From a virus, in UHGV virus genome UHGV-0200554: a DNA stretch of 64,000 bases, one strand, 5' to 3'. The position numbers and the translations under genes are program-made. Below are positions 16,545 through 25,581 of this stretch, in pieces. The notes under the pieces were generated by a model. It made no database searches and was not told where the DNA came from. It worked only from the letters and a program-made list of their open reading frames with translations. Each line of letters begins with the position of its first letter. The first letter of the stretch is position 1.

Positions 16545-16835
16545 TCACTTATGATCAGCGTCGTAGTCTTTCCAGGGGAGAAATTCGCAATCAAGGCCGG
16601 GGGCAACAACCTCACCAGTAGTAAGACCTTGCAGGAAGATAGTCTGCCCAGTTTCTGTAACGATGCATTCAAAATTCCTCTGATGGGCATAAAGCACCGT
16701 ATAGATCTCGCCGAGGTACAACCCTTTGATACCGCCTGTTTTTACGCACATGACGCTCATAAGAGGGTATAAACCTTCTTCACAAGTTAGTTTGCTCAGT
16801 TCTCTCATAGTGTATCTCATTGTGTCCTCCATCAT
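16545..16835 (-). CDS. hypothetical protein (96 aa)
   Basis: ORF; 4-nt overlap with upstream gene. Confidence 0.5.
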   Translation of the reverse strand: MMEDTMRYTMRELSKLTCEEGLYPLMSVMCVKTGGIKGLYLGEIYTVLYAHQRNFECIVTETGQTIFLQGLTTGEVVAPGLDCEFLPWKDYDADHK

Positions 16836-17140
16836 CCAAAAATTGTTTCGAGATAGGCAGCTCTGCGGTTTTTCGTGAAATCCTGCAAATCATTGAGATC
16901 GGCATCAGTCCTGGTACACAAAGACTCCCTGCATGTGTTCAGCCAATGCAGATCTATCATAACCTGACAGAAGTCCCTGGGTAGCATATTATCCATAACA
17001 TCCTTCTTGTCAAGGTTTGGGAAGATTTCATCGATAGTGCTATCATCGGGACTAATGATACTGAATGTTCTGTCAATACCTGTGCAGACAGCTACAAGTG
17101 TAGGGCTGTCACCAGGCAACAATTCGTGATCACGAGACAT
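16832..17140 (-). CDS. hypothetical protein (102 aa)
   Basis: ORF in leftward block. Confidence 0.5.
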   Translation of the reverse strand: MSRDHELLPGDSPTLVAVCTGIDRTFSIISPDDSTIDEIFPNLDKKDVMDNMLPRDFCQVMIDLHWLNTCRESLCTRTDADLNDLQDFTKNRRAAYLETIFG

Positions 17141-17184
17141 GTAAACCTCAGATAAAGAAAAAGGGAGCCAAAGCTCCCTTCAGA

Positions 17185-17508: not shown

Positions 17509-17721
17509 TTAATCTAAAATGTCTACAATTTTGAAGTACTCTGGGCATTCGATTACATTCAGGCAGATGTAACGGCTATCACCATCGTCATCAATCGTAT
17601 AGAAAGCTAACTCACCGTCAACAGCTGGATGGTGGACGACGTAACCATCGTAGATTCCACCTTTAGTGAACCCCCAGTAATCACCGAGGCATTTCACTGC
17701 AAAGCAATCACCGTTTGTCAT
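17509..17721 (-). CDS. hypothetical protein (70 aa)
   Basis: ORF; start overlaps stop of upstream peptide gene. Confidence 0.5.
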   Translation of the reverse strand: MTNGDCFAVKCLGDYWGFTKGGIYDGYVVHHPAVDGELAFYTIDDDGDSRYICLNVIECPEYFKIVDILD

Positions 17722-18134: not shown

Positions 18135-18218
18135 TTAGATTAGAATGATAAGTGCGATGACTGCTGCCGCTGTAATAGTTATTGTTCCTAAAAACAACTT
18201 CAGCATTTCTTTGTTCAT
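18135..18218 (-). CDS. small hydrophobic membrane peptide (27 aa)
   Basis: RBS ggag; hydrophobic core; not in ORF track. Confidence 0.35.
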   Translation of the reverse strand: MNKEMLKLFLGTITITAAAVIALIILI

Positions 18219-18523
18219 GATATAATCTCCAAAATTTCATAACGGTTAGGTTTGAATATGAAGGCTTCTTCTTTTTGGTATTTGCTTTTTATCTTCTTGC
18301 CCCCTTTTTCTTTACGGCAGAAATAACAAATGATAACGTTATCTCTTACCATGTGGAACAGGATATCTTCTTCTGTCAACCCACAGGTAGAAAGGTCCTC
18401 GTAGGAGAGTGCTTTAGCTACAGATTCTTTGGTTGGGGTTTCACCAACAACTTCGTCACCTTCGTGAACCCCGTACTCTGCCAAAGCATCTCCCACACCA
18501 ATCAATCTAACTTTAACCAGCAT
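18215..18523 (-). CDS. hypothetical protein (102 aa)
   Basis: ORF in leftward block. Confidence 0.5.
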   Translation of the reverse strand: MLVKVRLIGVGDALAEYGVHEGDEVVGETPTKESVAKALSYEDLSTCGLTEEDILFHMVRDNVIICYFCRKEKGGKKIKSKYQKEEAFIFKPNRYEILEIIS

Positions 18524-18537
18524 GGGAGAGTCTCCTG

Positions 18538-18810
18538 CTATTCAACGATTTCGTAGCAATCACTGCAAACAATCATCGGGTCTGCTTCGAAGCCAGGGAT
18601 ATTTTCAAGAACGACCGCTTGGTTAAGAGTCAGCATAACCAGGAGAATACCAACATCTTCTTCTGCAACACCTAAGCTAAGCAGTTCTTCTTTATTCGGG
18701 TAGTGTGCATCAAGCACAGCACCTTCTTTGATCATACCAGACGCTTCAACCATTCCTTTCATGTCACTAGGCATCATGCAGTCTTCAACTTTAGTCAGGC
18801 GAATTTTCAT
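18538..18810 (-). CDS. small acidic protein, paralog family member (90 aa)
   Basis: N-term MKIRL, C-term CYEIVE; paralogous to 18810, 19279, 24896 ORFs. Confidence 0.55.
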   Translation of the reverse strand: MKIRLTKVEDCMMPSDMKGMVEASGMIKEGAVLDAHYPNKEELLSLGVAEEDVGILLVMLTLNQAVVLENIPGFEADPMIVCSDCYEIVE

Positions 18811-19103
18811 TATTCGTCCTCCTCTTCTTCAACAACATCCCAGAAATCACCAGGGATAGCCAGACCTTTATCTTCATCACCGTTTGGGAAAATGAAAACA
18901 ACCCCTTCGAGGATCATCATCAGAGTGACCTGCTGTAATGCATCTTCACCAGGATCAGGATCTCCGTGAGAAGTGATCTCTTTCAACACATCTGCCGGAC
19001 TTGGGACAAATGCATCATGAATTTCACCATCTTTGATACCGAAGATTTTTGCTGTTTCTTCGTCTACACCTTTAAGCACTACTTTAAAATCTGGTTGACG
19101 CAT
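18810..19103 (-). CDS. small acidic protein, paralog family member (97 aa)
   Basis: C-term FWDVVEEEEDE; shares core with 18538 and 19279 ORFs. Confidence 0.55.
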   Translation of the reverse strand: MRQPDFKVVLKGVDEETAKIFGIKDGEIHDAFVPSPADVLKEITSHGDPDPGEDALQQVTLMMILEGVVFIFPNGDEDKGLAIPGDFWDVVEEEEDE

Positions 19104-19170
19104 TGTGAGTACCTTTTGTAAAAGGGCACATCCGCTGTGCCGATGAGTTAGGGAGGTAACTGCAAGTTTA

Positions 19171-19275
19171 TCAGAGAAACTCTTTCAAAACTTTAGCTTG
19201 GGTGATCATAAAGACACCGTAAGCAAGAACTACAGGTGCTGTTACGACAGTTAAGAGATAAGCTACTGCCAACAT
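19171..19275 (-). CDS. small hydrophobic membrane peptide (34 aa)
   Basis: RBS gaggag; hydrophobic core; not in ORF track. Confidence 0.35.
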   Translation of the reverse strand: MLAVAYLLTVVTAPVVLAYGVFMITQAKVLKEFL

Positions 19276-19278
19276 GCT

Positions 19279-19551
19279 TTACTCCTCAACTACCTCGTAG
19301 TTTTCAGGTAAAACAATCAGGTTTTCACCACTACCCGGGGCATCAAAAGTAGCCATACCTTCCGGCAGGTGCAGTTCAACCAAAGTGAGCAGAGCTTCAC
19401 GTTCAGCTTCGCCCATACCTTCGAAAGTTTCGTCACCTAGGGCATCGCGAGCTACATCTTCCGGTGTAGGAATTTTAGCTTCTACGATCATACCTTCAGT
19501 CAGGCCGTGGATTGGATCAGCGATTTCAGTGTTCAGTAATTTAATTTTCAT
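19279..19551 (-). CDS. small acidic protein, paralog family member (90 aa)
   Basis: N-term MKIKL, C-term NYEVVEE. Confidence 0.55.
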   Translation of the reverse strand: MKIKLLNTEIADPIHGLTEGMIVEAKIPTPEDVARDALGDETFEGMGEAEREALLTLVELHLPEGMATFDAPGSGENLIVLPENYEVVEE

Positions 19552-19576
19552 TAGAAGGTCCTCTTTTTGGGTAGAA

Positions 19577-19654
19577 TTAATAGCCGTAGCCTAAGAAGTT
19601 AACAACAGCTATCAGGAAAATCATAACTAACAGACAAGCTATCTCTAAACGCAT
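19577..19654 (-). CDS. small hydrophobic peptide (25 aa)
   Basis: Short ORF with hydrophobic core; weak RBS. Confidence 0.25.
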   Translation of the reverse strand: MRLEIACLLVMIFLIAVVNFLGYGY

Positions 19655-19677
19655 TACATGTTCTCTTTAGTTGGTAG

Positions 19678-19791
19678 TTATTTCTCTTGTTTGTAGTGTT
19701 CACGGAGGAGCTGGATTACAAAGTCCAGCCCTCCGATGATACCACAGACAAGGAAAGTATAGATGAGAAACATTAAAATCATGTCGTACAT
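19678..19791 (-). CDS. small hydrophobic membrane peptide (37 aa)
   Basis: ATG ORF with TM (ILMFLIYTFLVCGIIGG). Confidence 0.3.
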   Translation of the reverse strand: MYDMILMFLIYTFLVCGIIGGLDFVIQLLREHYKQEK

Positions 19792-19917
19792 ACTACACCA
19801 CCTTGCTGCTAGTGTCAAGTGCTTATTTGGAAAATAGGTGAATTATTTTTTACCTTTCCCGCCTTTGCCTTTGCCACCTTTTTTGCCACATGCCATACAC
19901 AATCTCCAGTTAGTTAA

Positions 19918-20178
19918 TTAAAAGTGGCCTTGCGCTAGTTTAATGAGCGCATCTGCCATTTGACGAACCGCTTTGGCGTGTTCCAAAGGCGAAAGTCCGT
20001 CTTCAGGATCGAAGCGTAATGCTTCCATTACTGCTTTCAGTTCACCATCTTCCGCATGGATTTCACCACGTACCGGAAGTGCCCCAGGACACGATTGGTC
20101 CATACTTTCTTCAACGTAATCAACACCAGCGATAAGACCAAATGCACCGTTGTTGTCGATAACAAGTTCTTGTTTCAT
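19918..20178 (-). CDS. hypothetical protein (86 aa)
   Basis: Track ORF trimmed to ATG after agaggg RBS. Confidence 0.5.
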   Translation of the reverse strand: MKQELVIDNNGAFGLIAGVDYVEESMDQSCPGALPVRGEIHAEDGELKAVMEALRFDPEDGLSPLEHAKAVRQMADALIKLAQGHF

Positions 20179-20209
20179 CTTGGCACCCTCTTTGTTTCGA
20201 TGTGTGGTA

Positions 20210-20238
20210 ACTATAACAGATTCAAATCGTGTTGTCAA
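20210..20238 (-). promoter_or_regulatory. sigma70 promoter (leftward), extended -10
   Basis: Minus strand TTGACA, 17 bp spacer, TGTTATAGT. Confidence 0.5.
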
Positions 20239-20643
20239 CTACTTTTTAATCTCAATTTTGCCGTATGGAGGCATATCATCAAGATTACTGTTTTTAAGCA
20301 TTGTAGCACAATTTTTATCTGGTGTCCACTGTTTTTTATCATTGTCCCAATAATAAGGAGATCTGCTATCAGGATGTTTAATTATAAACACTTCAGGTGC
20401 TGTTGTCAAGTCAATTTTTTCAAAATCTACGTGGACTTTACCATTAAACCCGCCACGTTGATATCCACGGTCGAAATTTGATCTTGCAAATAAATATCCG
20501 GCTAACCAGCCAGCAGAGACACCATCCCCCGCGATGGCGTAGCCAATTACACGTTTTCTCTTCTGGTGGTCATCCTCAACATCCCAGGCATCTTCCACCA
20601 GAGTAGTTATTTTATACAGATTCACCTCTGTGGGCCTCCTCAT
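20239..20643 (-). CDS. hypothetical protein (134 aa)
   Basis: ORF in leftward block. Confidence 0.5.
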   Translation of the reverse strand: MRRPTEVNLYKITTLVEDAWDVEDDHQKRKRVIGYAIAGDGVSAGWLAGYLFARSNFDRGYQRGGFNGKVHVDFEKIDLTTAPEVFIIKHPDSRSPYYWDNDKKQWTPDKNCATMLKNSNLDDMPPYGKIEIKK

Positions 20644-20974
20644 AGTTCAGAATCATGGCATCTACAAACAACATCCGCATAACGTTGAGGTGTTTGTTCT
20701 TGCGGCTATAATACACGTATGCATCCCCGTTGTCAAACGGAAACTGTGTGTCACCATAAACTTTTTCCAGAGCATTTTCCAGCTCTTCCTGGAGCTGATA
20801 GTACGTCCCTGTATCAAGACCTTGATAAGAGGCATACTCAGCCAGGTTCCCACATAAACCGCGATGATCCTGGAACACAGGATCAGTGTCTTTAGCACCT
20901 CCCCATGCCCAGCTCCTGTACTCCATGTAAAACTGGTACATGAAGTCAGAAGGAATTACTGTCTCAATAACCAT
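20612..20974 (-). CDS. hypothetical protein (120 aa)
   Basis: ORF in leftward block. Confidence 0.5.
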   Translation of the reverse strand: MVIETVIPSDFMYQFYMEYRSWAWGGAKDTDPVFQDHRGLCGNLAEYASYQGLDTGTYYQLQEELENALEKVYGDTQFPFDNGDAYVYYSRKNKHLNVMRMLFVDAMILNYEEAHRGESV

Positions 20975-20983
20975 AACCCACCT

Positions 20984-21283
20984 CTACTCATCTACATATA
21001 TGAGCAGGATACGAGTATCCGGCACCCCAGTTACTTCCCAGTAGCCACCACCTGGATAAACTTTACCAAGCAGTACGCCGATATGGCGACGGATTTTCTC
21101 AACCATCTCTTCCATACGTTGTGCATCTTTGCGTCGGAACATGCGGAATGTGCCGTTTGACAAACGGTATTGGTATTCCATCATCTTATCGACTAATTCA
21201 GCTACACGGTTTACTACCGGATCGTCATCGAGGCCATCAAGTAAACGAACATGACGCATAACTCTCTCCTTACCAGCCTTCAT
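20984..21283 (-). CDS. hypothetical protein (99 aa)
   Basis: ORF in leftward block. Confidence 0.5.
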   Translation of the reverse strand: MKAGKERVMRHVRLLDGLDDDPVVNRVAELVDKMMEYQYRLSNGTFRMFRRKDAQRMEEMVEKIRRHIGVLLGKVYPGGGYWEVTGVPDTRILLIYVDE

Positions 21284-21331
21284 AGCGGATAATTGGTTGT
21301 GGGGGTTCAGGTGGACGTGGTTTATCGTCCT

Positions 21332-21595
21332 TTACAGCTTTTTTGGCGGTGCTGCCTTAGGCATATGAGCTTTAGTATGGATCTGGTCAGCAGTGTAATA
21401 CTGTGCACCCTGCTCTGTTAAAGCTCGGTCTTTCACATAGCAATCAGCAGCCCAAACGGCCTGTTCTTCACTATGCCATTTACGCTGACCATTTAGCCAA
21501 ATATCATGCCACATTGGGATAAAGCCAAGGTGAACTTTCTTCACCTGTGCCCTCCACCATACACCATCAAAGAAGATTTTAAATTCCACTTCCAT
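21332..21595 (-). CDS. hypothetical protein (87 aa)
   Basis: ORF; Trp-rich. Confidence 0.5.
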   Translation of the reverse strand: MEVEFKIFFDGVWWRAQVKKVHLGFIPMWHDIWLNGQRKWHSEEQAVWAADCYVKDRALTEQGAQYYTADQIHTKAHMPKAAPPKKL

Positions 21596-21867
21596 CAGTC
21601 ATCCTCCACCAGCTGTGCACCTGCCGGATAAATACCTGTTTCAACCCAAAGCTCACACTGAGCGTACCCTGGGATACGAGACAGCGAGCAAGGTTTAGAT
21701 GTAGTGTAGAAACGGCGTTCACCGTAACCGTTCTCCTGGAGGATCCAGAAACCTACGTCACCATCTCCAGGTATTTTCATGCCGTTCTCATCGAGCCACT
21801 CTATACTCCAGCGGCGATAAGCTACTGTGTGGAATTTACGTTTCTGCCACCAGTTAAAGAGCCACAT
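21595..21867 (-). CDS. hypothetical protein (90 aa)
   Basis: ORF; start-stop coupling. Confidence 0.5.
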   Translation of the reverse strand: MWLFNWWQKRKFHTVAYRRWSIEWLDENGMKIPGDGDVGFWILQENGYGERRFYTTSKPCSLSRIPGYAQCELWVETGIYPAGAQLVEDD

Positions 21868-22048
21868 CTGTAACCTCCTCCAGCTTCACATAACGCCACG
21901 TACGGCTGTAGAGGGCACCAGCGTCATCAAGAGTATCACGGATGTACTCAGGAGTCGTGCCTTCTTTAAAAACGAGAACCCTGACCAGATGCCAGTCTTC
22001 GTCAATAGACATACGACCAGATATGATGAAAGTTGTTTCTGTAGGCAT
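21854..22048 (-). CDS. hypothetical protein (64 aa)
   Basis: ORF in leftward block. Confidence 0.45.
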   Translation of the reverse strand: MPTETTFIISGRMSIDEDWHLVRVLVFKEGTTPEYIRDTLDDAGALYSRTWRYVKLEEVTDVAL

Positions 22049-22245
22049 CAGAAGATCTCCTCTTCAAAAATACCTCTCTCAATAGCTTTTATCATAAGCT
22101 CTTTAGTGAAAGCAGAACCTTTCCCCTTACTTATATTTTCAGACCTACACACCATTACAATGTTTGGAGTGTCTGAGTGCACGATGTAATACAAACCATT
22201 CTGTTTGTTGAAGTAATAAGTGTCGTATTTAAATTTGTTAGCCAT
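22048..22245 (-). CDS. hypothetical protein (65 aa)
   Basis: ORF; start-stop coupling. Confidence 0.45.
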   Translation of the reverse strand: MANKFKYDTYYFNKQNGLYYIVHSDTPNIVMVCRSENISKGKGSAFTKELMIKAIERGIFEEEIF

Positions 22246-22553
22246 TAGCGTCTACCTCTACCTTTTCTTTTTACTGCTTTCTTAGGTTTCTCAGCTTCAT
22301 CGTCTGCATTAAACATCTGCATGAGATGTGCCTGAGAATTCTTACCAAGGCCGGGTTTCTTCAAAGGATTATCATGTTCTTCAATGTCAATCTCTACTGA
22401 CTCAACCTCTCCGACCTTGTATGGCAATTCTAACAGAAGTTTACCATCCTTGTCAAATGTTTTTATAATAATTGTTTTCCCTTTTTCTTCTACCTCATAA
22501 CGGACACCCGCCGTATAGAAAAGTGTACCGTCATTATGATGGATCCACAGCAT
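22245..22553 (-). CDS. hypothetical protein (102 aa)
   Basis: ORF; basic C-terminal tail. Confidence 0.5.
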   Translation of the reverse strand: MLWIHHNDGTLFYTAGVRYEVEEKGKTIIIKTFDKDGKLLLELPYKVGEVESVEIDIEEHDNPLKKPGLGKNSQAHLMQMFNADDEAEKPKKAVKRKGRGRR

Positions 22554-22737
22554 CGCCTTCCTCCTTCAACATCTGGTGGTAGATATCCATAATGGCATCG
22601 TATGCAACATCAAAACCTTGCTGACGCAGCATATCTTCCAGAGGAGACTCCATTGTTGGGTTGTAGTGACGAGCTACGATATCCCGATCCAGTTCGTCAA
22701 AAATGCGTTGGAATACCTCAAATTGCTCTTTTGTCAT
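22534..22737 (-). CDS. hypothetical protein (67 aa)
   Basis: ORF in leftward block. Confidence 0.45.
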   Translation of the reverse strand: MTKEQFEVFQRIFDELDRDIVARHYNPTMESPLEDMLRQQGFDVAYDAIMDIYHQMLKEEGDAVDPS

Positions 22738-23123
22738 ATACGAACCCCATCTGCTGGCCCAGAGTATCGCTCAGGTTCCGTTACCGGATCACTGGCTGCT
22801 GGAGCTTCCATTCGCATCTGAGCCTGATCTCCATCCATATAAAGCCAGAACTCTATCTCTTCACCAGAAGAAAGGATAGCATAACCGTGGAAGAAATCTT
22901 TGTTCTTAGTCAACTTTTCGTCAATTGTTGCTTCGACACAAACTTCTTCATAGCCACTTTTTTGTAGCGTGTACGTTGCAACCTGGCAAGCATAAGCCTC
23001 TTGATCTCTGTAATCTTCACCCAGTGAATGAATGATGAAACCCAAGCCTAATCCGCAAAACAGGATAATGCCTAAAGCAAGCATACACTTGGCGAAAGCA
23101 ACACTGAACAGAAAATTTTTCAT
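22734..23123 (-). CDS. exported or membrane-anchored protein (129 aa)
   Basis: N-terminal signal or anchor (AFAKCMLALGIILFCGLGLGFII). Confidence 0.5.
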   Translation of the reverse strand: MKNFLFSVAFAKCMLALGIILFCGLGLGFIIHSLGEDYRDQEAYACQVATYTLQKSGYEEVCVEATIDEKLTKNKDFFHGYAILSSGEEIEFWLYMDGDQAQMRMEAPAASDPVTEPERYSGPADGVRI

Positions 23124-23221
23124 ACAATGAACCTCATAGCTTCAACAAACAGAAGACCTAATGCTGCACCGAACGCAAACCAGCACACCCCATCAATTAA
23201 CTCCTTAATGAACTTTTTCAT
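23120..23221 (-). CDS. small hydrophobic membrane peptide (33 aa)
   Basis: RBS agagaggg; ATGA overlap with downstream gene; not in ORF track. Confidence 0.4.
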   Translation of the reverse strand: MKKFIKELIDGVCWFAFGAALGLLFVEAMRFIV

Positions 23222-23253
23222 GTTGCCCTCTCTTACACATCCTTGTGTAACAT

Positions 23254-23709
23254 TTATTCAAAAAGTAGCTCTACGTGGTGTAAAATAAGCATTAATTGCA
23301 TTAACACAATGACAAGAACTACCCAGTTGGCTTTATTATTAACAATTTTACGAATCTTTTCAGAACGTGATTCAGGTAGAGATCTCAGGATACGCTCTAC
23401 TGAACGATTCATATCACGGATAGCCATTTTAAAACTGTCCGATCCTTCATCTTGCTCCGTAACCACGTCGAAAGCACAGTCTTTAGCGTTACCTCCAGAA
23501 CCACGAGTCACAATGAGTCGATACATTGACACAGAATAATGTGTATTCGACTCAGCGTCATAGATGCTGAGAACTTCTTTGGTATGGTCAATTGCTGATG
23601 AAAGTTTAATCGCACCAGCTGTCGTCTCAATTTTACCAGCCTCAAGGAGCATTAACCAATGCTTTTTATCCAGATTCTCAAGACTAGATCTGACGTACTT
23701 CACAAACAT
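23254..23709 (-). CDS. hypothetical protein with C-terminal TM (151 aa)
   Basis: ORF; C-terminal hydrophobic segment. Confidence 0.5.
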   Translation of the reverse strand: MFVKYVRSSLENLDKKHWLMLLEAGKIETTAGAIKLSSAIDHTKEVLSIYDAESNTHYSVSMYRLIVTRGSGGNAKDCAFDVVTEQDEGSDSFKMAIRDMNRSVERILRSLPESRSEKIRKIVNNKANWVVLVIVLMQLMLILHHVELLFE

Positions 23710-23922
23710 TTAATCCTCCTTGCCGAAAGTTAAAAAGAAGTTAAAATCATCAATCCAGTCCCAATTAGAGCGGATCATAGGCCACGATTTATCACCATGC
23801 TCAACATTGTGGGCGCGATAGTCCATCTCCCACACATCAATTAGCTGGTGCATATACTCTTTAGCCTGCTCAAGAGACATGTTGTCAGGATCAATTTTTG
23901 TAATGTCAATCATCTTCATCAT
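23710..23922 (-). CDS. hypothetical protein (70 aa)
   Basis: ORF in leftward block. Confidence 0.45.
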   Translation of the reverse strand: MMKMIDITKIDPDNMSLEQAKEYMHQLIDVWEMDYRAHNVEHGDKSWPMIRSNWDWIDDFNFFLTFGKED

Positions 23923-24019
23923 CCTCTTTTAGTTTGTGATAAAGGATAATTGCACCCGCTAAGATAACAAAAAACAGGCACACCCCAGTCAACATCTCAA
24001 CCAACATTGCTTGGCCCAT
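23906..24019 (-). CDS. small hydrophobic membrane peptide (37 aa)
   Basis: RBS gaagagg; TM core; not in ORF track. Confidence 0.35.
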   Translation of the reverse strand: MGQAMLVEMLTGVCLFFVILAGAIILYHKLKEDDEDD

Positions 24020-24153
24020 GATCAACCTCTTCAATTAGCTCAACAACTTCATGTAGCAAGTTTTGCAACAAAATTTGATCAGCCAATGTTTTAGCATTGT
24101 TTCTGTGGTCTTTTATGATGTGGAGCACTTGCCACAACAATTGGGCATGAATA

Positions 24154-24372
24154 TCATCTTCCATCACCACCTCCTCTCAGCTTACGCATATTCTTAACCC
24201 AATCGATTACACCGATCAGCAAGCCCAGGAACAGGAAAGGCCACAATCCTGCCAACCCAAGGATATTATGAACATCATCACCATCAATCCGACGTTTAGT
24301 CTTCATACACAGGATTGCCAGAACAATCATCAACAATCCTGCTACACCGAAATATAGTTCAACAATGCCCAT
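24154..24372 (-). CDS. two-TM small membrane protein (72 aa), holin-like topology
   Basis: Two hydrophobic segments and charged C-terminus; function not established. Confidence 0.45.
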   Translation of the reverse strand: MGIVELYFGVAGLLMIVLAILCMKTKRRIDGDDVHNILGLAGLWPFLFLGLLIGVIDWVKNMRKLRGGGDGR

Positions 24373-24383
24373 TGTGTCAACTC

Positions 24384-24899
24384 CTATTTAAATTCTGCCA
24401 TACTGCGGATCATCCGATCACGAGCTTTTCTGTGATGAGTACGCATACATTCTTCAAACACTCCAGAGATAAATCTTGAAATGTAATCTCTTTCAGCTTT
24501 AGTTAGGAGTTCTTCCTCTTCTATTTCGACAGTTTTGTAAGCATATAGACCACATTCGTTGTAGCCTTCATAATAATTCACAGCAATTTTAACAGGAAGA
24601 TCATGACCTTCAAGGGTGAACGGTGTTAACCGACGCTCTGGGTGGCCTGTTTCCTCACCTTCAACAAAATAAAGCGTATTATCATCGAACGCTTTGTCCA
24701 TGCAAGCCACAAAAGCAGCTACTGCCTCAGAAACACCAGCGATAAAGTAAGCATATTTAGCTTTAGCCATCATGATTTGATGACGTTTTACATCTGCTTC
24801 AGTGTGCTTTCCTGAAGCATAGTAATAATATGTGTGGATCTTATCCGGCGATACGTAAAAGTCTTCCCAAGTGTACAGTAGCTTGCTCATAGTGGTCAC
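24384..24899 (-). CDS. hypothetical protein (171 aa)
   Basis: ORF in leftward block. Confidence 0.5.
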   Translation of the reverse strand: MTTMSKLLYTWEDFYVSPDKIHTYYYYASGKHTEADVKRHQIMMAKAKYAYFIAGVSEAVAAFVACMDKAFDDNTLYFVEGEETGHPERRLTPFTLEGHDLPVKIAVNYYEGYNECGLYAYKTVEIEEEELLTKAERDYISRFISGVFEECMRTHHRKARDRMIRSMAEFK

Positions 24900-25129
24900 T
24901 CCTCAACTATTTCGAACCCTAAACCGCCATGCTCTGGGAGCGGCAGAAGGGACATGTAGTAGGTATATCCGGGGGATATTCTTCCCTCTTTTGCACCTGC
25001 CTCTAATAAATCAACACCACGAATTATAACAATTGTCGGATCGGTTGTCAAGCGTTTACAGGGAACAATTTTGCCAACACAATCACAGAGGGATGGGTAA
25101 CCGTGGTCGGTAAGGAATTTGACTTTCAT
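24896..25129 (-). CDS. small protein, paralog family member (77 aa)
   Basis: N-term MKVKF, C-term GFEIVEE. Confidence 0.5.
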   Translation of the reverse strand: MKVKFLTDHGYPSLCDCVGKIVPCKRLTTDPTIVIIRGVDLLEAGAKEGRISPGYTYYMSLLPLPEHGGLGFEIVEE

Positions 25130-25170
25130 TTAAACCTCCTGAAAGGCCATCCCTGGCAGGCTAAAGAAAC

Positions 25171-25581
25171 TTACTGAACTGTTTTTGGAGCTACCATTGA
25201 CAATTCTTCAATAGCGAAGAGTTCGTTACCCACAATGATATCTTCTTTTTCGCAGTTTTCAGGGTCTTCCGCGTAAATCAGAGCTACTTCATCAAATTTA
25301 CAACCGATGCGATTGCCCTTATTGTCTTCCATCTGCATACGAGGATGTTCAGTCATGCAGATGTATCCGTCTGTACCGACAGTACCTTCCATAGGTTCCT
25401 GACCTGCTACTAGGATCAGGATTGTTGCACCTTTAGGTACAAAACCCATCACCTGAACAGTGTCACCAACAATACTTTCACCGAAATGAGTTTTCTCAAA
25501 CATTGTGTCTTTCACCACTGTGGCGAATTCACCGTTCACTTCTTTCTTGCCGCTCTCACCTGTTACGATTTCGATTTTCAT
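25171..25581 (-). CDS. hypothetical protein (136 aa), N-terminus resembles the small acidic paralog family
   Basis: N-term MKIEIV like paralog family; acidic. Confidence 0.5.
   Translation of the reverse strand: MKIEIVTGESGKKEVNGEFATVVKDTMFEKTHFGESIVGDTVQVMGFVPKGATILILVAGQEPMEGTVGTDGYICMTEHPRMQMEDNKGNRIGCKFDEVALIYAEDPENCEKEDIIVGNELFAIEELSMVAPKTVQ

Follow-up and report, generated by a model that had tools for sequence, protein, structure and literature searches.

Four ancient paralogs of a small-protein family with a predicted SH3-like barrel fold in a distant lineage of rV5-type phages

The 64,000-nucleotide stretch of the virus genome UHGV-0200554 analysed here (the window) encodes four small proteins of 90-102 aa, designated A, B, C and F, that are ancient paralogs of one another; their family is referred to below as family 1. 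As a whole, we read these ancient paralogs with a predicted barrel fold as dispensable accessory binder proteins for host takeover or counter-defence, a reading that we regard as about evenly balanced and whose functional part draws on the dispensability and genomic context of the genes as well as on the size, charge and predicted fold of their products.

The family 1 genes lie close together on the minus strand, near the 3' end of a long leftward accessory block rich in host-type promoter matches: C (19279..19551; 90 aa, net charge -16), B (18810..19103; 97 aa, -18, with an acidic EEEEDE tail), A (18538..18810; 90 aa, -11) and F (18215..18523; 102 aa, -3). B, A and F are nearly contiguous, the stop codon of B overlapping the start codon of A (TAATG), and the family 1 genes have ribosome-binding sites, with start and stop codons that overlap or follow each other closely. 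The same four genes were called independently in the source ENA contig, the record of which also includes a hydrophobic 34-aa ORF between C and B (19170..19274, minus strand) that is not a family member. A sigma-70-like site on the same strand (19790..19818; TTGACA, 17 nt, TAGTAT; 10/12), upstream of small membrane ORFs and C, is a candidate promoter of the C-B-A-F unit, and downstream of the cluster a terminator-like hairpin with a trailing T run (17160..17181, minus strand) may mark the end of the unit, both having been picked out by consensus scan only; such a scan yielded 46 sigma-70-like promoter matches in the region, against 21.2 +/- 5.6 expected.

An earlier note on this DNA had grouped A, B and C with two further ORFs, D (24896..25129; 77 aa) and E (25171..25581; 136 aa), as a family of small acidic paralogs sharing their termini, E only as a probable member. 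All five ORFs are present, all on the minus strand, and a tandem family of small proteins that belongs to no named family is real. Its membership differs: A, B and C are paralogs over their full length, D and E are not part of the family, and F had been overlooked. The quoted termini are borne out for A (MKIRL...CYEIVE), C (MKIKL...NYEVVEE) and D (MKVKF...GFEIVEE), and for B at the C-terminus (FWDVVEEEEDE), its N-terminus being MRQPDFKVVLK, with a five-residue extension ahead of the shared strand; E starts with MKIEI but ends in ...APKTVQ, without the C-terminal motif. Strong acidity likewise applies to C, B and A but not to F, so that it is not a family-wide property.

Pairwise BLAST within a nine-protein database aligned A, B and C at 25-27% identity over 74-83 residues (E-values of 4.5e-6 for A-C, 2.7e-6 for B-C and 0.006 for A-B) and matched F to C with an E-value of 5e-5. 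An HMM built from the window copies recovered four members in Escherichia coli phage nom (E 1e-10 to 1e-17), and a fifth followed once these four were included in the model; nom_142, the rV5-type ortholog of F, was matched by the window-only HMM with an E-value of 8e-13. In the alignments, G20 is invariant and Y85 nearly so. Near full-length PHROG matches were obtained for C (phrog_11868, E 5e-24), B (phrog_12359, E 8.7e-8), A (phrog_12155, E 9.1e-14) and F (phrog_12794, E 2e-10). With a threshold of E <= 1, no Pfam profile, SH3 and KOW included, matched A, B, C or D, and neither the NCBIfam search nor a PDB sequence search returned anything significant. Two existing labels were rejected. The GenBank annotation of C orthologs as sigma-54 modulation protein or ribosome hibernation factor appears to have been mis-transferred: C has no S30AE/HPF match in Pfam or NCBIfam, and in rV5-like phages the HPF-like gene is a separate neighbour, nom_133. 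The Obg C-terminal domain (DUF1967 / TIGR03595), with which F is labelled in a MAG record, fell short of both curated cut-offs (27 bits required, 13.7 scored; 37.65 required, 15.1 scored), the sub-threshold match spanning only 20-22 residues.

The terminal motifs that had brought D and E into the family do co-occur above chance: with the motifs defined post hoc and 140 window genes taken as a crude set, four genes start with MK[IV][KRE][LFI], six end with [YFW][EDK][IV][VLI][ED] and three do both (Fisher p = 1.8e-4). Yet homology of D and E to family 1 was not detectable: neither matched the family 1 HMMs, hhalign comparison with family 1 gave probabilities of 1.0% (small alignment) and 1.6% (full alignments) for the D family, 0.4% for the nom_136 subgroup, which carries an insertion at the same loop, and 0.7% for E, and D and E belong to other PHROGs (5009 and 5748, respectively). 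D is the sole window member of a second paralog family, which is expanded in E. coli Vequintavirus phages and comprises nom_117, 129, 130, 136 and, weakly, 137 in phage nom. Beyond the termini, D and family 1 share no significant sequence similarity, yet both are predicted to belong to the SH3-like barrel fold class; the small barrel predicted for D accounts for the resemblance of its first and last strands to those of family 1. On the models, D would represent a separate sequence family of the same barrel fold class, the likeness in fold possibly reflecting either convergence or very distant common descent. E, a conserved small protein with ortholog nom_116 (phrog_5748, E 6e-24), is by all sequence comparisons unrelated to family 1, with only the MKIEI start in common.

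AF2 modelled C with a pLDDT of 83.9 and D with a pLDDT of 94.9, and both retrieved the same list of structural matches. Family 1 is predicted to fold as a five-stranded SH3-like beta-barrel, superposable on SH3, KOW or PsaE domains, in which the conserved N-terminal MK(I/V)K(L) would form strand 1 and the C-terminal Y-E-(I/V)-V-E strand 5. A predicted three-helix insertion of ~35 residues, beginning just past a conserved P-T-x-E, separates strands 2 and 3. The loop between strands 1 and 2 of A holds a 10-residue insert, and F carries an 11-residue lysine-rich insertion that has no counterpart in its closest relatives in the DNA alignment. The SH3/KOW-like matches include the KOW domains of Spt5/NusG and the RNA-binding protein OapB, whereas Foldseek against BFVD returned family members alone, listed as uncharacterized proteins; no enzymatic motif is present in the family 1 proteins.

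The small size of the proteins, the net charges of A, B and C (-11 to -18), the acidic tail of B and the many host-type promoter matches in the block would also fit acidic DNA mimics, that is, Ocr-, ArdA- or Arn-like decoys against restriction enzymes or other DNA-binding host proteins. The net charge of F, which is only -3, a predicted compact barrel with a helical insert in place of an elongated, charge-patterned mimic and the lack of similarity to solved structures in the sequence search all speak against such decoys, as does, indirectly, the report of the BASEL study that restriction-modification systems act exceptionally strongly against Vequintavirinae (PMC8594841); we consider this explanation quite improbable.

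All four window members have counterparts in rV5-like phages that are 1:1 syntenic orthologs: C corresponds to nom_135 / bas54_0153, to which this most conserved paralog is 56% identical, B to nom_139 / bas54_0149, A to nom_140 / bas54_0148 and F to nom_142 / bas54_0146. The order C...B-A-(extra)-F is identical in nom, Bas48 (CarlMeissner), Bas52 (RudolfGeigy), Bas53 (JohannBauhin), Bas55 (JeffSchatz) and Bas56 (AlexBoehm). Against four close relatives, found by a locus search with C alone, dN/dS in family 1 ranged overall from 0.04 to 0.48 (B, 0.04-0.22; A, 0.21-0.48; F, 0.13-0.18), with 0.05-0.09 for E. Recent duplication or gene conversion was rejected, the paralogs retaining merely 27-34 nt DNA stretches that are 71-78% identical. 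Given the 1:1 syntenic orthologs and the signature of purifying selection, the duplication is evidently old and stable rather than part of an ongoing diversification, and the label 'diversifying' used in the earlier note has to be dropped. The same data make it very hard to regard these genes as chance ORFs or decaying, functionless remnants, an idea to which their small size, their lack of annotation and a frameshift in the A ortholog of one relative, L002, lend something: dN/dS is well below 1 in all four, conservation is full-length at 25-56% identity in two or more lineages, the structure prediction is confident, and the genes have ribosome-binding sites and tightly spaced or overlapping starts and stops.

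Among 1.84 billion proteins, family 1 forms 15 clusters at 50% identity. A separate search gave 87 clusters at 90% identity, whose full-length members reside almost without exception on contigs of up to ~145 kb, and tblastn matches were confined to ~119 Vequintavirus records. The 20-kb flanks of the ClpP gene contained no member in Seunavirus, Mydovirus, Avunavirus or Certrevirus. A megablast search of phage genomes with the region produced no match, and the window represents a distant lineage, with NrdD 75% and ClpP ~60% identical to the rV5-type proteins. As judged from these searches, family 1 is restricted to Vequintavirus phages and uncultured sister lineages. This distribution bears on the possibility that the proteins are helpers of the phage itself, such as adaptors or substrates of the nearby ClpP-like protease, small KOW-like barrel regulators of phage transcription or translation, or assembly chaperones whose paralogs are redundant. 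The fold matches to Spt5/NusG KOW domains and OapB, the stable retention in a fixed order across genera under purifying selection, and paralog redundancy, which would account for the dispensability of single genes, are in keeping with such helpers. However, no KOW or other Pfam motif was found, and within the 20-kb flanks searched, the family is absent from other Vequintavirinae genera that retain the ClpP-like gene along with the machinery for replication and morphogenesis, which places it outside the core programme; a phage-internal function is therefore conceivable but rather unlikely in our judgement.

Experimental data come from transposon sequencing (Tn-seq) of Bas54, the genes of which were matched to family members through their order and identical lengths rather than their sequences. 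Genes bas54_0146 to 0149, corresponding to F, the extra paralog, A and B, were scored 'Non-essential' in K-12, and their log2FC in the clinical isolate CFE311 (-0.04 to +0.40) was not significant; the C ortholog bas54_0153 was 'Intermediate', with a non-significant drop of -2.78 in CFE311 (10.1101/2025.11.20.689424). The second-family members bas54_0151 and 0152, together with bas54_0150, were strongly depleted in CFE311, and the Bas54 accessory block holds validated or candidate counter-defence genes, namely bas54_0140 and bas54_0150 to 0152 (10.1101/2025.11.20.689424). A second Tn-seq preprint and a paper on daunorubicin contain nothing on these genes. The available experimental data thus run against the anti-defence idea for family 1, the orthologs of B, A, F and the extra paralog having been unneeded in the single non-laboratory host tested.

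These results also weigh on the original proposal of a single family of five, A to E, acting as an actively diversifying anti-defence or host-interaction arsenal. The co-occurring termini, the predicted fold class shared by D and the validated or candidate counter-defence genes in the same block of Bas54 favour it, but it conflicts with the lack of detectable homology of D and E to family 1, with the missing C-terminal motif of E, with orthologs that stay 1:1 and syntenic across genera at dN/dS < 0.5, and with the absence of a conditional requirement for the B, A, F and extra-paralog orthologs in CFE311. It is largely refuted for membership and diversification, and we rate it as improbable overall. 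Under the preferred reading, that of dispensable accessory binders, the barrel-plus-helix scaffold of each paralog would have its own binding partner in the infected cell, a macromolecule of the host or possibly of the phage, and would serve host takeover or counter-defence in a manner required in particular hosts or conditions alone. A more far-reaching and doubtful extension is that families 1 and 2, and perhaps the family of gene G (17509-17721), diverged from a single SH3-like 'binder scaffold' during a radiation within the Vequintavirus-type accessory block, each paralog neutralising a different host factor or defence system. If so, about ten small genes of the rV5 block, out of roughly forty, would derive from this scaffold, and the strong depletion of bas54_0151/0152 in CFE311 would offer a first functional view of such a repertoire.

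The E. coli phages of Vequintavirus are common, have a broad host range and are candidates for therapy, and most of their small accessory genes lack a known function. The genes described here were already catalogued as hypothetical proteins in >100 genomes, and Tn-seq had found most of them dispensable; they form a real but fairly ordinary accessory gene family and imply no new mechanism. The main value of the analysis lies in better annotation, including removal of the wrong 'sigma 54 modulation factor' label. Uniting the four PHROGs in a single paralog family defined by its predicted fold, and recognising the same barrel fold class in a second, interleaved family, provides a rational grouping of these genes for multi-gene knock-outs and partner screens.

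T7 Ocr exemplifies the small acidic early phage proteins that inhibit host factors. Like family 1, proteins of this type are of small size and acidic, are not needed in permissive laboratory hosts, and come from accessory regions with host-type promoter matches, but they share no sequence or predicted structural similarity with it. The SH3-like small barrels (SH3, KOW of NusG/Spt5, PsaE, PhnA-like and OapB) are 2-19% identical to the family in sequence, and the predicted three-helix insertion sets family 1 apart from them; no signature for binding proline peptides or nucleic acids is apparent in it. The phrog_5009 group is alike in size range, MKVK start, E(I/V)VE end, predicted fold class and genomic block, the two families being interleaved in rV5-like phages, where the orthologs of C and B flank nom_136 and nom_137; it differs in lacking the helical insert and the P-T-x-E and acidic motifs of family 1. 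Finally, PHROGs 11868, 12359, 12155 and 12794 ('unknown function') cover these genes, which rV5-like E. coli phages carry as nom_135 and nom_139 to nom_142, annotated as hypothetical proteins. Whereas PHROGs keeps these as four unrelated-looking families, they constitute here one paralogous family with a common predicted fold, of which the window copies, 25-56% identical to their rV5-type orthologs, represent a distinct lineage.

All five ORFs that the earlier note had joined as one diversifying family of acidic proteins with shared terminal motifs are present on the minus strand, exactly where it had placed them: A (18538-18810, 90 aa), B (18810-19103, 97 aa), C (19279-19551, 90 aa), D (24896-25129, 77 aa) and E (25171-25581, 136 aa), the last named there as a probable member. 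The family itself stood in part. A, B and C are homologous over nearly their whole length (pairwise identity of 25-27% across 74-83 residues), but D and E are not members, and a fourth paralog, F (18215-18523, 102 aa), directly downstream of A and matching C with an E-value of 5e-5, had been overlooked. An HMM built from the window copies alone matched four genes of the rV5-like E. coli phage nom at E-values of 1e-10 to 1e-17, gaining a fifth nom member at the next iteration; F's rV5-type ortholog, nom_142, was matched by the window-only profile at 8e-13. The profile never matched D or E, and profile-profile comparison gave a probability of 1-1.6% for D's family and of 0.7% for E, which also lacks the C-terminal motif. 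In the alignment of A, B, C, F and their relatives (family 1), one glycine (G20 of C) is invariant and the tyrosine of the C-terminal Y-E-(I/V)-V-E nearly so; the motif P-(T/N)-x-E and an acidic E-E-D are also seen. Both terminal motifs are rare in the window (N-terminal in 4 and C-terminal in 6 of 140 genes of a crude gene set) and co-occur non-randomly (Fisher p = 1.8e-4, for motifs defined post hoc). PHROGs splits A, B, C and F into 12155, 12359, 11868 and 12794, respectively, with function unassigned and some cross-hits. A further 70-aa acidic protein, G (17509-17721), ends in YFKIVDILD, which resembles the family 1 C-terminal strand; it belongs to a small family of its own, with an ortholog near nom_145.

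The window phage is of the rV5 type (Vequintavirinae), but distant. Megablast of the region returned zero matches among deposited phages; NrdD shares 75% identity with Vequintavirus proteins and the ClpP-like protease ~60% with its rV5-type counterpart, and the order ClpP, methyltransferase and a long run of small genes is shared with nom. Eighteen 'Campylobacter phage' records (MG0656xx, host C. jejuni) also carry rV5-type genes, whose identity to C and NrdD of the window equals that of the E. coli Vequintavirus records; the host attribution of these eighteen looks doubtful. Family 1 is restricted to one phage clade: it comprises 87 clusters at 90% identity, the full-length ones nearly all on contigs up to about 145 kb, and 15 representatives at 50% identity among 1.84 billion proteins. 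Matches in the isolate collection are limited to ~119 Vequintavirus records, and the stretches reaching 20 kb to each side of the ClpP gene in Seunavirus GAP31, Mydovirus KB57, Avunavirus Av-05 and Certrevirus CR3 contain no member. Certain metagenomic members share just 30-48% identity with the Vequintavirus records, which indicates at least one more uncultured lineage.

The window paralogs correspond one to one, and in the same order, to rV5-type genes: C to nom_135, B to nom_139, A to nom_140 and F to nom_142; nom_141 is an extra member without counterpart in the window, and the nom layout is repeated in the BASEL phages Bas48, 52, 53, 55 and 56. DNA similarity between paralogs is almost erased. 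Measured against four close relatives from IMG/VR, dN/dS was 0.06-0.08 for C, 0.04-0.22 for B, 0.21-0.48 for A and 0.13-0.18 for F, compared with 0-0.03 for D and 0.05-0.09 for E. Together, the ordered orthologs, erased DNA similarity and low ratios indicate that the duplications are old and each copy is conserved. These data lend no support to the proposed diversification, and a five-member, diversifying anti-defence family is improbable. The source 139.5 kb ENA metagenome contig has its own gene calls for C, B, A and F, and it is very improbable that these are non-functional ORFs. The A ortholog of one relative (L002:10734-11010, IMG/VR contig 3300045988_133607) carries a 1-nt deletion causing a frameshift, a sign of a pseudogene or of an error in assembly. 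F contains a 33-nt A-rich insertion (within about 18255-18300) that encodes the lysine-rich KEKGGKKIKSKYQKE, located in the loop ahead of the last two strands and missing in all four relatives (L002-L005), whose F is 91 aa long. A, B, C and F form an ancient, constrained four-member family of small proteins, three of them strongly acidic (net charge -16 for C, -18 for B, -11 for A and -3 for F). That such charge serves to mimic DNA is quite unlikely, since Vequintavirinae are reported to be exceptionally sensitive to restriction-modification systems (PMC8594841), which speaks against an Ocr-like role.

AlphaFold2 modelling of C with a 29-sequence family alignment (pLDDT 83.9) yielded five strands (2-5, 22-26, 67-70, 77-80 and 85-89), with a three-helix insertion (30-61) separating strands 2 and 3; the fold predicted for family 1 is an SH3-like barrel that carries this helical insert. 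D, modelled from 26 sequences (pLDDT 94.9), is mostly a beta barrel with short helices and is part of a second paralogous family (family 2), with four clear members in nom (nom_117, the D ortholog, nom_129, nom_130 and nom_136) and a weak fifth, nom_137. D is the single copy in the window, versus 4-5 in rV5-like phages; there the two families are interleaved, with nom_136 and nom_137 placed between the orthologs of C and B. The terminal motifs fall on the strands predicted to open and close the barrel, which explains their recurrence in both families. This likeness of predicted folds without detectable sequence homology may reflect either convergence or a very remote common ancestry. Among viral models, Foldseek returned family members alone, all uncharacterised, and no significant match came from Pfam, NCBIfam or sequence searches of the PDB.

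The genes are tightly packed: the stop of B overlaps the start of A, and F, which has a ribosome-binding site, follows 14 nt after A. Between C and B lies a 34-aa hydrophobic ORF (19170-19274), for which the source record has a gene call. Such tiny hydrophobic ORFs (~25-46 aa), with one predicted membrane helix apiece, are interleaved with the family genes (also at ~19580-19655 and 19678-19818). In the 11 kb around the genes, sigma-70-like promoter matches number 46 against 21 expected (consensus only), the best mostly on the gene strand. Candidates, by consensus match only, include a promoter upstream of C (19818-19790) and a terminator-like hairpin (17181-17160). Perfect 12/12 matches to the sigma-70 promoter consensus on the minus strand occur at 20381-20409 and, with an extended -10 TG, at 25023-25051, inside the D coding sequence and directed at the next gene (24384-24899).

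A transposon-sequencing preprint on the Vequintavirus Bas54 lists gene coordinates (10.1101/2025.11.20.689424). Genes of 288, 330, 351, 258, 396, 333, 264 and 270 bp there equal nom_142 through nom_135 in length and order, by which, rather than by sequence, we tentatively mapped bas54_0146 to 0153 onto them. The orthologs of F (bas54_0146), the extra paralog (0147), A (0148) and B (0149) are Non-essential in K-12, with non-significant log2FC of +0.32, -0.04, +0.06 and +0.40 in '311', the clinical E. coli isolate CFE311, so that, judged by insertions in single genes, they are dispensable in both E. coli hosts. The C ortholog (0153) is Intermediate in K-12 (log2FC in '311' -2.78, p = 0.30), and the presumed D and E orthologs (0166 and 0167) show +0.72 and +0.65, both non-significant. 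Strong depletion in '311' (q = 0 throughout) affects the genes between the C and B orthologs: bas54_0152 (nom_136, family 2; -7.16), 0151 (nom_137, weakly family 2; -6.17), both Intermediate in K-12, and 0150 (nom_138, Non-essential in K-12; -6.77), the last conditionally essential in CFE311; this run may include polar effects. Also strongly depleted is bas54_0140 (-5.48, q = 0), which the authors validated as an anti-DS-28 gene. The window encodes a homolog of nom_138/bas54_0150 (20239-20643, E 5e-13) and a weak homolog (16832-17140, E 9e-5) of nom_148, which corresponds to bas54_0140. The CFE311 depletion of bas54_0150, 0151 and 0152 is absent from the preprint's main-text discussion. In its supplementary file 9, sheet 'resampling_K-12_vs_CFE303' has the command line for sample '311' and the following sheet carries the same numbers, so the CFE303 comparison is seemingly missing (10.1101/2025.11.20.689424). 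Helper or adaptor roles internal to the phage are a minor possibility for family 1. We infer that its proteins may be accessory binders without enzymatic activity that serve host takeover or counter-defence in certain hosts, a reading with about an even chance of being correct.

Several GenBank records of C orthologs (e.g. KR698074 APECc02 and MN850646 nom_135) read 'sigma 54 modulation factor', which we reject, an HPF/S30AE profile match being absent; the true HPF-like gene is nom_133 close by, annotated as 'ribosome hibernation factor' in the BASEL phages, and no homolog of it was detectable in the window. The family 1 genes were already known, being present in PHROGs and annotated as 'hypothetical protein' in >100 genomes. 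New are the union of four PHROGs into one family, its assignment to a predicted fold, the recognition of a second family of the same fold class and the correction of two database labels, 'sigma 54 modulation factor' for the C orthologs and 'DUF1967' for F. Small accessory genes in paralogous sets are familiar from large lytic phages, and family 1 fits this pattern.
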